64,000 nt of DNA from Felixounavirus AN17P8: the sequence record OZ035742.1. One strand, written 5' to 3'. This document shows, piece by piece, positions 5,560-7,210 of the stretch. The notes below the pieces were generated by a model. It ran no database searches and was not told the origin of the DNA. It saw only the letters and a list, made by a program, of their open reading frames with translations. How positions within the stretch are numbered: position 1 is the stretch's first letter; every line of letters begins with the position of its first letter. The position numbers and the translations under genes are program-made.

Positions 5560-5960
5560 AGATTTTTTATAAGGCTACTGCCATCCTTCCATACCAAACC
5601 TCACCTGACCTCGCCTAACCCTACCTTACTCCACCATACAGCACCTTATTAAAACACCCTGTTTAAAGACCTTTTAAAAAGGTAAGTCTCATTTTAATGT
5701 AGCTGAGACTAACTACCCATACCTCACCCTACCAGACCCTACCAGACCAGACCTTACCCTACCAGACCCTACCGAACATCACTTAAAAACCCTCTTAGAA
5801 GACTCTTAAGTGATGTAATCGAATTTTAATGTAGCTCCGATTAACTACCCATACCTCACCTCACCCAACCATACCATGCCTTGCCAGACCGCACCTTACC
5901 TCATTAAAAGACCCTCTTAAAAGACCTTTTAAAAAGGAGCCTCCGAAGAGGCTACCTAGT
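5560..5960. repeat. repeated C/A-rich intergenic elements with covarying hairpins (two copies plus related leader)
   Basis: Hairpin with conserved loop TTTTAATGTAGC and variable stems (AGTCTCA/TGAGACT; AATCG/CGATT), then ACTACCCATACCTCACC and 11-nt CCCTACCAGAC-type repeats. Confidence 0.55.
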
Positions 5961-5975
5961 CAACTTAGAAAGGTT
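5946..5975 (-). terminator. rho-independent terminator (minus strand)
   Basis: Minus-strand reading: AGCCTC-ttcg-GAGGCT then CCTTTTTAAAA. Confidence 0.5.
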
Positions 5976-6405
5976 TTCTACGTTGCTTGTTAATGTTAGC
6001 TTTCATAGCAGCTAAATGGTTTTGCTGTTCAATCAGTCGTGAACGTTCTTGATGACTAAGCGCCATAGTGTTCACATTCTCAATTGCTTGAGTGGCTTGC
6101 TTTAAAGCTCGACCAATCTTACCAGACATTTTGCGTTTTGCAATAGTTGCTTGATGCTTAGGTTCAACCACACGATAACCAACACCCATTGAAGCAACCA
6201 GATAAATCTTCTCTTCTTTAAGAAGCTTTTCAATAAACTTCTCAAGTCGGTTTAGACGTGTAAGTGCATAAGCCTTCATTTCATCTTCGTACTTAACAAT
6301 GTCACCTTGATAAGTTGGCTTCACAATACCTAAGAAGGTGTCCATCTCGGAATGTGATACAGTGTCGCCGTAACTAAACTTTGCTGCTAATGCTTTTGTA
6401 TTCAT
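5965..6405 (-). CDS. hypothetical protein
   Basis: 146-aa ORF followed by minus-strand terminator. Confidence 0.45.
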   Translation of the reverse strand: MNTKALAAKFSYGDTVSHSEMDTFLGIVKPTYQGDIVKYEDEMKAYALTRLNRLEKFIEKLLKEEKIYLVASMGVGYRVVEPKHQATIAKRKMSGKIGRALKQATQAIENVNTMALSHQERSRLIEQQNHLAAMKANINKQRRKPF

Positions 6406-6407
6406 AA

Positions 6408-7010
6408 TTAAACGTTACCTTCTGAAATAACTTCTACAGAAAAACGACCAAAGCGTGGACGCCAATCACCTACACCACAAAGGTTACCAGCATTTTCCAG
6501 AACCATCAGAAGTTCCTCTTTGGTGATTTGCTCTTCATCAAACATCAAACCAAACTCTACAGACCAGTCACGGAAGATTGGACGGTAGCTCATAACTCGT
6601 GCTGTACCAATCTTAACAGACTTAGCATAGATAAAGTCTGGATTCTTAGCAAGTTCTTGTGGGTTTGCTGGACAGTTCTTGATAGTCATTGGGAAGACTA
6701 CATCTGTCAGCATAATGGCTCGGTCAATTACCTTACCAAGTTTGTTGAGTTTTGCACCAGACTTGATACAAGCCTCAATCATCTCACCGTTCATAACAAA
6801 ACCAAGTTGCTCATCGTAGTAACAAGAAGTTACCAGTTGGCTTTCTGCTAAGAGCGCATAGTCTTCGTCAGTCTTTTTACGTTTACTGGACAGAGACTTG
6901 TGATATTTTGTCAGAGGGTTTAATGGGTCTGACAACGTATCGTTATGGCTCAGGAAAGGACGAGTACCAGTGATTTTGATATTTAACAGTTTCATAGCAT
7001 TTAGCTCCAC
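6408..7010 (-). CDS. hypothetical protein
   Basis: 200-aa ORF in replication block. Confidence 0.45.
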
Positions 7011-7069
7011 ACTTTAGTTGATTGTTAAGTTGTTTGTAAAGAACCCTCAACAGAAGACTCTTTAGAAAC

Positions 7070-7210
7070 TTGGTAGATTTTTAACGTGGCTACTACCATC
7101 CACCCATACCTCACCTAACAACACCTAACAACACAAAACTACACCCCACACCACCGCACCACACCAAACATCACTTAAAAACCTTCTTAGAAGACTCTTA
7201 AGTGATGCTG
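7070..7210. repeat. third copy of the C/A-rich intergenic element
   Basis: TGGTAG-atttttaacgtggc-CTACCA hairpin, CCACCCATACCTCACC, ACCTAACAAC x2, then CATCACTTAA...TTAAGTGATG inverted repeat shared with 5781-5815. Confidence 0.55.

Follow-up and report, generated by a model that had tools for sequence, protein, structure and literature searches.

VIPR (Viral Interference Programmable Repeat) systems are a newly reported form of RNA-guided DNA recognition, in which a non-contiguous code is read by an ancestral repeat-associated mysterious protein (RAMP) and which, in the preprints describing them, are proposed to predate CRISPR (clustered regularly interspaced short palindromic repeats). They comprise Vipr, a RAMP of ~20 kDa, an accessory protein (Vap), and guide RNAs termed vrRNAs (10.64898/2026.04.26.720920). 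Here, a 64-kb stretch of Felixounavirus AN17P8 (OZ035742.1), hereafter the window, was analysed, and all coordinates are window positions. Its locus at 5557-7265 (minus strand) represents, with a probability of about 95%, a type II VIPR locus orthologous to that of Escherichia phage SUSP1. The element is already known: it is a well-supported and almost identical orthologue of a system that was described in 2026 and characterised by experiment. The window adds no new kind of system.

According to the first preprint, each vrRNA carries 9-16 YNNGG repeats, in which GGY is conserved and NN is hypervariable, followed by an invariant 3′ tail with a pseudoknot, and the vap1 gene of type II VIPR is predicted to encode a DNA-binding protein (10.64898/2026.04.26.720920). 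The minimal type II locus is described there as vipr and one vap gene between vrRNA-encoding non-coding regions, with neither a CRISPR array nor cas genes. In the reference locus of SUSP1, one vrRNA lies upstream and three lie downstream of the genes; vrRNAs of ~100 nt, their co-purification with Vipr, and repression of transcription were reported on the basis of small RNA sequencing, pull-down, green fluorescent protein, and lambda assays, and targets were found for 20 of 41 guides (10.64898/2026.04.26.720920). A second preprint describes, by cryogenic electron microscopy, a right-handed filament with one Vipr protomer per repeat, in which the residues H17, D177, R138, W178, E71, M72, R179, and C173 hold the flipped-out GGY, and the NN bases pair with DNA in an R-loop triplex, every third base being skipped (10.64898/2026.04.26.720927).

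Identification of the Locus

Of the hallmarks of type II VIPR, the window has a vipr gene, vrRNA repeats, pseudoknotted tails, a minimal locus, and guides that match targets with a skip of one base and without self-targeting. The sequence is that of a Felix O1-like myovirus, matching 230 phage records at 80-100% identity, and the closest record is Escherichia phage vB_EcoM_ULIM8 (ULIM8) of the Felixounavirus group. In the open reading frame (ORF) map, the minus strand is the sense strand for all genes flanking the repeats, so that it is also the strand on which to read the element. Following transcription, DNA ligase (7273-8412) comes first, and after it a spacer, the 195-aa ORF, the 146-aa ORF, a 500-bp spacer, small genes, dhfr, and thyA. 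The locus itself runs from a promoter through vrRNA-D, vipr, vap1, and a terminator to vrRNA-C, vrRNA-B, and vrRNA-A (Table 1). The original prediction, made from the sequence alone, had described a C/A-rich intergenic element in three copies; it worked on the wrong strand and overlooked the fourth copy, the strict repetition every 5 nt with its hypervariable NN, and the connection with the genes on either side.

The 195-aa product is identical to SUSP1 Vipr at 191 of 195 positions (98%), and its AlphaFold2 (AF2) model shows a RAMP fold with a predicted local distance difference test (pLDDT) score of 95.5. As expected for type II, this RAMP homologue is small (~20 kDa) and stands alone, and it has an RRM core, a glycine-rich loop, and a thumb; each of the GGY-contacting residues named above is present. 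Although the ORF list begins at GTG 7010, the homologues are 195 aa long, and the true start is the ATG at 6995. Vap1 shares 145 of 146 residues (99%) with the product of the SUSP1 gene in the corresponding place. Neither Vipr nor Vap received a functional name from Pfam, PHROGs, NCBIfam, or PADLOC, and no cas matches were found with Pfam, NCBIfam, or PADLOC. A tblastn search for Vap1 homologues at distant Vipr loci returned nothing significant.

The agreement with SUSP1 extends to the gene order (vrRNA, vipr, vap1, and vrRNA array, i.e., 1 + 3), a layout that was seen in the SUSP1 sequence of the collected set (locus L140, 90,743 bp). The two systems also share the GGY/NN code, tail types with a hairpin and a pseudoknot, and a 1-nt skip with the skipped base at the wobble position, as well as the class of target, namely E. 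coli satellite islands with a Felix-like baseplate-hub gene and a tape-measure gene. On the other hand, all four window tracts differ in NN from the four SUSP1 tracts, no target could be detected for the upstream guide of the window, several of whose repeats are degenerate (DGY), and the phage that carries the locus is a member of the Felixounavirus group, not SUSP1 itself.

Pentamer Code of the Guide Tracts

The three copies recognized originally are real, but the repeat search gives four; the fourth lies at 5557-5682 (repeat family 5588-5682) and has its own hairpin, GGCAG...CTGCC, at 5557-5582. Hairpins with a common loop (TTTTAATGTAGC on the plus strand, GCUACAUUAAAA on the minus strand) and differing but complementary stems are present in the sequence as described, and the inverted repeat CATCACTTAA...TTAAGTGATG was recovered in two copies by the repeat search. 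Likewise, the shared 17-mer ACTACCCATACCTCACC was confirmed, its 14-mer core occurring in three exact copies (5715, 5847, and 7102). The conserved element beginning ACTACCC consists of the last two repeats together with the 5′ strand of a pseudoknot. C/A-rich tracts are indeed present on the plus strand; their description as different short tandem repeats in each copy was incomplete, since the minus strand is a phase-coherent GGYNN array with a period of 5.

The four tracts contain 7-12 in-phase GG per 60-nt window, against at most four elsewhere in the 64 kb on both strands. In the complete ULIM8 genome, five arrays were detected, all on the sense strand and only in the two orthologous spacers, and the element is thus local to one locus and not dispersed. 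The search for further copies, suggested as a check in the original prediction, has thus yielded the fourth copy within the locus and, in ULIM8, none outside the two spacers. An exact search of IMG/VR with the 14-mer ACCCATACCTCACC returned 120 loci, nearly all of them chance matches, and was uninformative.

For comparison, loci were retrieved via the 195-aa ORF, which gave 89 copies with 70 unique tracts from 21 genomes, at 3 to 5 copies per genome. Each copy is composed of a conserved 5′ module, a phased pentamer array of the form (G/u/a)G(T/c)NN, and a 3′ tail, with 9-12 guide repeats per copy in the window and 8-18 across its relatives. Over 953 pentamers, G makes up 80% of position 1 (U 13%, A 7%) and 96.5% of position 2, and T or C makes up 91% of position 3 (T 81.5%, C 10%), while positions 4 and 5 carry only 0.08 bit each. 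Chance could not plausibly give such a pattern. The minus strand of the tracts is composed of 44% G and 7% C. The unique tracts range from 56 to 107 nt, and 68 of the 70 have a length in the residue class (mod 5) that their 5′ module dictates; differences in length are hence multiples of 5 only, and the phase is anchored to the 3′ end. The flanks (the 5′ module and four tail types) are nearly invariant, and the tracts between them are almost wholly different even where the flanking protein is 99% identical. The GGY triplet is under strong purifying selection, and the alternating NN is unconstrained or diversifying. Changes by whole pentamers, together with the exchange of cassettes between conserved flanks, might suggest that guides diversify by slippage and recombination and not by a dedicated acquisition machinery.

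Among distant Vipr homologues (37-40% identity, on metagenomic viral contigs of 50-57% GC), directly flanking GGY/NN arrays, mostly GGC-NN, were found at five of six loci. Such arrays, of GGC-NN or GGT-NN, flank the distant vipr homologues of the IMG/VR loci L144-L148 (at ~2400-4000 of each); L145 has several long arrays in succession, with tails unlike the Felix-like ones.

The 3′ Tail and the 5′ Module

The tail consists of a hairpin and a 4-bp pseudoknot, in which the bases just 5′ of the hairpin pair with the first bases of its loop. Over 33 unique tails, 93.4% of the stem positions are paired, compared with 28-40% in slid controls, and in nine of the 11 pairs both sides have changed; within the pseudoknot helix (GUAG:CUAC, GUGG:CCAC, or AAGG:CCUU), pairing reaches 99.2%. 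Covariation of the hairpin in related phages, which the original prediction had named among its tests, is seen in these tails, with few independent events among the four tail types. G-U pairs are present at positions that would be A-C on the opposite strand; since they can form only on the minus strand, they speak for that strand as the RNA. The last two pentamers of each array (GGUAU and the pseudoknot pentamer) match targets at the chance level (0.30) and hence belong to the tail, not the guide.

Minimum free energy folding of whole vrRNAs, a method that cannot represent the pseudoknot, gave structures no better than those of shuffled sequences (z from -0.9 to +0.7), as is expected for a protein-bound, unstructured guide. 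Rfam covariance models at a permissive E-value gave only sub-threshold chance matches (17-22 bits, compared with gathering scores of 50-140), and the element is not described in the genome papers of Felix O1 and UAB_Phi87. Of the functions considered originally, a small non-coding RNA and a binding site for an RNA-binding protein were both right in substance, as the elements encode vrRNAs and the vrRNAs would be the binding substrate of Vipr.

Every repeat tract in the window is preceded by a 5′ module with the core AGGGTYTTTTAA, which occurs in two forms, palindromic CATCACTTAAG (CATCACTTAAGAG...CTTAAGTGATG) and AAAAGGTCTTTAAG (TTTTTAAAAGGTCTTTAAGAGGGTCTTTTAAT). A partial extra copy lies at 7040-7065, between vrRNA-D and the vipr start. 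The module may be a promoter, a processing site, or a 5′ handle. The idea that AGGGTYTTTTAA marks a general class of phage promoter was rejected, since outside this locus it is essentially absent from the 64 kb.

Satellite Targets and the 1-nt Skip

According to the first preprint, the phage and the satellite it targets have a baseplate-hub gene in common (10.64898/2026.04.26.720920), and the Felix-like baseplate-hub gene region was for this reason chosen as the blastn query against 5,426 complete E. coli genomes. A homologue was present in 474 of them, with up to 93% nucleotide identity over ~540 nt. The hub gene sits in islands of ~11.5 kb, which also contain genes for a serine recombinase, a tape-measure protein, and an HNH endonuclease and small ORFs, and which are inserted at yecE (DUF72), between tonB and yciI, or next to wrbA (e.g., L149, 4877-16367, and L150, ~1000-12400, of the set L149-L165); several are disrupted by insertion sequence elements. 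These islands appear to be satellites of Felix O1-like phages, and they constitute the chief target of the guides.

The 70 guides from the 21 phages were scanned against 17 islands (202 kb), an NN match of at least 0.85 being counted as a target. With a skip of one base, 51 of the 70 guides reached this cutoff, and with skips of 0, 2, or 3 none did; in the first 11 islands, the corresponding figure was 45 of 70 with skip 1 versus 0. Both strands are targeted, and the skipped base falls at codon position 3 in 26 of the 35 matches within ORFs, the other 10 of the 45 guide matches in the first 11 satellites lying outside ORFs of at least 60 codons. The 1-nt-skip rule was in this way independently reproduced from raw sequence, and with it the central computational claims of the first preprint (10.64898/2026.04.26.720920), with independent data.

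The window adds four natural guides, two of which (vrRNA-A and vrRNA-C) have clear, assignable satellite targets; that half of them lack a target agrees with the 20 of 41 guides with targets given in the preprint. From tract and tail, with predicted ends, the vrRNAs are estimated at ~90-105 nt. The guide of vrRNA-A comprises 10 pentamers, followed by a tail with the hairpin GGCAG/CUGCC and the pseudoknot AAGG:CCUU. Its predicted target sequence is GCCAATGGCAACAGATACGATAAAGATTT, and 18 of its 20 NN bases match a 387-nt hypothetical satellite gene of strains a7 and 2018-18.25PC (L158, 8821-8849; L161, 7093-7121), in the sense of the coding strand and with the skip at the codon wobble position. 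This score was reached by 0 of 300 and 1 of 200 permutations of the NN order, and the same frequencies were obtained for vrRNA-C. The latter has nine pentamers and a tail with the hairpin AAUCGGA/UUCGAUU, including one G-U pair, and the pseudoknot GUAG:CUAC; with the predicted target sequence AAAGCCCTAAACATAATCTGTGAAGG, it matches the satellites L150 (6418-6443), L155, and L156 at 17 of 18 NN bases, and O111:H21 strain 15A is one carrier of such a satellite. The site is non-coding; it coincides in part with a hairpin (AAAGCCCT...AGGGCTTT and then a T run; L150, 6412-6450) ~100 nt upstream of a 711-nt satellite gene. No self-target of the four guides was found at the 0.85 cutoff in the window or in ULIM8; the best self matches were put at 0.70-0.78, and the highest single value is 0.83, for vrRNA-C in ULIM8.

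With regard to the other two guides, vrRNA-B has 11 internally repetitive pentamers, preceded by a palindromic 5′ module (5777-5816), and a tail with the hairpin AGUCUCA/UGAGACU. The counterpart of SUSP1 vrRNA1 is vrRNA-D, with 12 pentamers and a tail made up of GGTAT, the pseudoknot strand GTGG, and the hairpin GGTAG/CTACC with the loop GCCACGUUAAAA. Its tract, which was seen once among the 89 copies, contains a 10-nt internal duplication (TGTTAGGTGT / TGTTAGGTGA), and its NN bases are almost only G and T. Because it lies in the vipr leader behind a near-consensus promoter, with degenerate G1, G/T-rich NN, and no target in the 17 satellites, IMG/VR, or the phage itself, vrRNA-D is perhaps not an ordinary anti-satellite guide but a decaying one, a cis leader that titrates or autoregulates Vipr, or a guide aimed at an unsampled element; we regard such a special status as unlikely.

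Three of the 17 satellites carry a vrRNA gene of their own, with a D-type tail and 11-13 GGYNN repeats, but no vipr (L151, 2137-2242; L155, 2606-2716; L165, ~10490-10591). The guides of L155 and L165 match other satellites at 19-21 of 22 NN bases with the 1-nt skip, versus 15-16 on their own island, in agreement with the preprint, which states that satellites deploy guides against each other (10.64898/2026.04.26.720920). This implies that vrRNA-bearing satellites borrow the Vipr of the helper phage to attack rival satellites. A blastn search of the 5,426 E. coli genomes with the vrRNA-A to vrRNA-C region gave no match; this query lacks the D-type tail that the satellite vrRNAs carry. In L150, a stretch at 6087-6340 has a near-consensus promoter (TTGACA-17-CATAAT), ~220 nt without an ORF, and an intrinsic terminator (GCCCTAA...TTAGGGC followed by T6); it is a candidate satellite small RNA and contains GGTGAGGTATG, which resembles the 3′ end of vrRNA repeat tracts.

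Proposed Mode of Action and Points against the Assignment

In the mechanism that the preprints show for SUSP1, one protomer of Vipr, an ancestral Cas7-like RAMP, binds each repeat, flips GGY out, sequesters it, and presents NN. One strand of the DNA duplex is then paired with the concatenated NN bases, each third target base being left out, and the filament forms an R-loop or triplex by which transcription is blocked; Vap1 enhances the silencing. Class 1 CRISPR-Cas systems, in which filaments of Cas7, Csm3, or Cmr4 assemble on crRNA, differ in several respects. VIPR has no repeat-spacer array, cas1/cas2 or other cas genes, or protospacer adjacent motif, its guide is non-contiguous, with two of every five RNA bases reading two of every three DNA bases, and it is encoded by phages and aimed at rival mobile elements. 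A CRISPR array in the usual sense, with identical repeats of 23-55 nt and spacers of similar length, was rejected for the locus, given the unit size of ~130 nt, a variable part that itself repeats every 5 nt, and the absence of cas genes.

Several points weigh against the assignment of the locus to type II VIPR, or against parts of it. We infer transcription, processing, Vipr loading, and satellite repression in this phage from the SUSP1 orthologue, and both key papers are preprints from one laboratory. The covariation of the tails is drawn from four tail types and thus from few independent substitutions. The single-sequence AF2 model of Vap1 has a pLDDT of 68, and Foldseek gave only weak matches to winged-helix regulators (E-values of 0.2-0.4). 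As for the guides, the target of vrRNA-B is marginal (18 of 22 NN bases, reached by 6 of 200 permutations), and the best match of vrRNA-D in the 17 satellites (17 of 24) equals the background. In 5 of its 12 guide repeats, vrRNA-D has U or A in place of G1 (TGT or AGT), and a search of IMG/VR for exact 10-NN skip-1 patterns gave 0 matches each for vrRNA-B and vrRNA-D.

Alternative Explanations

In the Bacillus trp leader, the trp RNA-binding attenuation protein (TRAP) recognizes ~11 (G/U)AG triplets separated by 2-3-nt spacers, with one protein subunit per triplet. A similar attenuation system, in which a ring protein would bind ~11 GGU triplets with 2-nt spacers in leader or intercistronic RNA and control the flanking hairpins and downstream expression, was favoured here as the working idea before the literature match. 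The analogy lies in the ~11 conserved triplets with 2-nt spacers, each read by one subunit, and the seemingly unconstrained spacers and the position of an array in a 5′ untranslated region, behind a promoter and with hairpins on both sides, are in keeping with it. However, the number of repeats varies from 10 to 20, which does not suit a fixed ring, and the adjacent protein has a RAMP fold and not a TRAP fold. VIPR also departs from TRAP sites in its GGY triplet, its informative spacers, its filament instead of a ring, and its function, and the second preprint describes a helical filament (10.64898/2026.04.26.720927). Above all, the NN spacers are not neutral but match satellite DNA under a specific skip rule, by which a TRAP-like reading is effectively refuted; its probability is vanishingly small.

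The composition of the tracts raises two further possibilities, one for each strand. The elements lie in an operon of replication genes, between those for DNA ligase and dhfr/thyA, and their minus strand is strongly G-rich and C-poor with GG runs every 5 nt, so that the G-rich non-template strand behind a promoter might form a G-quadruplex or an R-loop and serve as an origin of replication or as a structural switch. A quadruplex had also been raised in the original prediction, and as a constraint on the sequence it does not hold: U or A stands in for G1 in 20% of repeats, and G2 and Y3 are conserved, a pattern that neither a quadruplex nor an R-loop predicts. Neither structure needs a strict phase or length changes by integral pentamers, the whole RNAs fold no better than shuffled ones, and the NN code matches foreign DNA; such a role is accordingly given next to no weight. 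The plus strand, being C-rich and G-poor over 60-80 nt, has the composition of a Rho utilization (rut) site and could end antisense transcription into the early operon. This would leave the 5-nt phase, the G-U tail pairs confined to the minus strand, the target-matching NN, and the association with a RAMP unexplained, and termination at rut sites, a side effect at most, is very improbable as an account of the element. The possibility that the element is a functionless miniature mobile element or selfish repeat, duplicated within the spacers, echoes a suggestion of the original prediction and fits the tandem arrangement and the variation in copy number from 3 to 5 per genome. It is contradicted by the confinement of the copies to one strand of the two spacers flanking vipr and vap, with none elsewhere in the 88.9-kb ULIM8 genome, and by the strong purifying selection that acts on both GGY and the structure of the tail; in addition, terminal inverted repeats and target-site duplications, the marks of a miniature inverted-repeat transposable element, are missing. 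We consider its chances negligible. An array of primase sites, Chi-like sites, and ToxI-like antitoxin repeats were also considered and dropped.

Arrangement of the Locus and Its Annotation

The features of the VIPR locus are listed in Table 1.

Table 1. Features of the type II VIPR locus and its edges, in the direction of transcription (window positions)
Feature	Position	Strand	Remarks
Sigma-70-type promoter, TTGACA-16-TATACT	7238-7265	-	11/12 consensus match; lies just before the first vrRNA and vipr
5′ module of vrRNA-D, palindromic CATCACTTAAGAG...CTTAAGTGATG, core AAGGTTTTTAA	7169-7207	-	inverted repeat
vrRNA-D	7072-7174	-	guide repeats 7111-7170; tail 7072-7110
vipr	6408-6995	-	195 aa; ATG start at 6995, stop included
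vap1	5965-6405	-	146-aa accessory protein
Intrinsic terminator, AGCCTCTTCGGAGGCT then T run	5938-5953	-	after vap1; from sequence
vrRNA-C	5817-5903	-	guide repeats 5856-5900; tail 5817-5855
vrRNA-B	5685-5782	-	guide repeats 5724-5778; tail 5685-5723
vrRNA-A	5557-5648	-	guide repeats 5596-5645; tail 5557-5595
5′ modules (all)	5777-5816, 7169-7207, 5904-5935, 5649-5684	-	conserved core
Sigma-70-type promoter, TTGACA-17-TATTTT	5509-5537	-	promoter of next gene (5081-5464); downstream edge of the locus

The annotation of these spacers can now be corrected to vrRNA genes; in the Felix O1-like records inspected, they had been labelled 'repeat_region' or 'DR_4' or were overlapped by spurious small ORFs. 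In the public records OQ850290.1 (39509-39646), MN850636.1, and NC_012749.1, the vrRNA genes bear only the labels 'repeat_region' or 'DR_4', and the annotation of ULIM8 places a 45-aa 'hypothetical protein' within a vrRNA, which is probably a spurious call. Felix O1-like sequence with 81-94% identity to the locus also occurs in GU169904.1 ('Staphylococcus phage SA1', 147 kb) and MG065668.1 ('Campylobacter phage A126'), both of which are probably chimeras or wrongly named. The minus-strand ORF at 5081-5464, next after the vrRNA array in the downstream direction, encodes 127 aa with a signal-peptide-like start (MKKILLAAAMVMAMNLPVSA...), and its promoter is embedded in an inverted repeat at 5510-5556.

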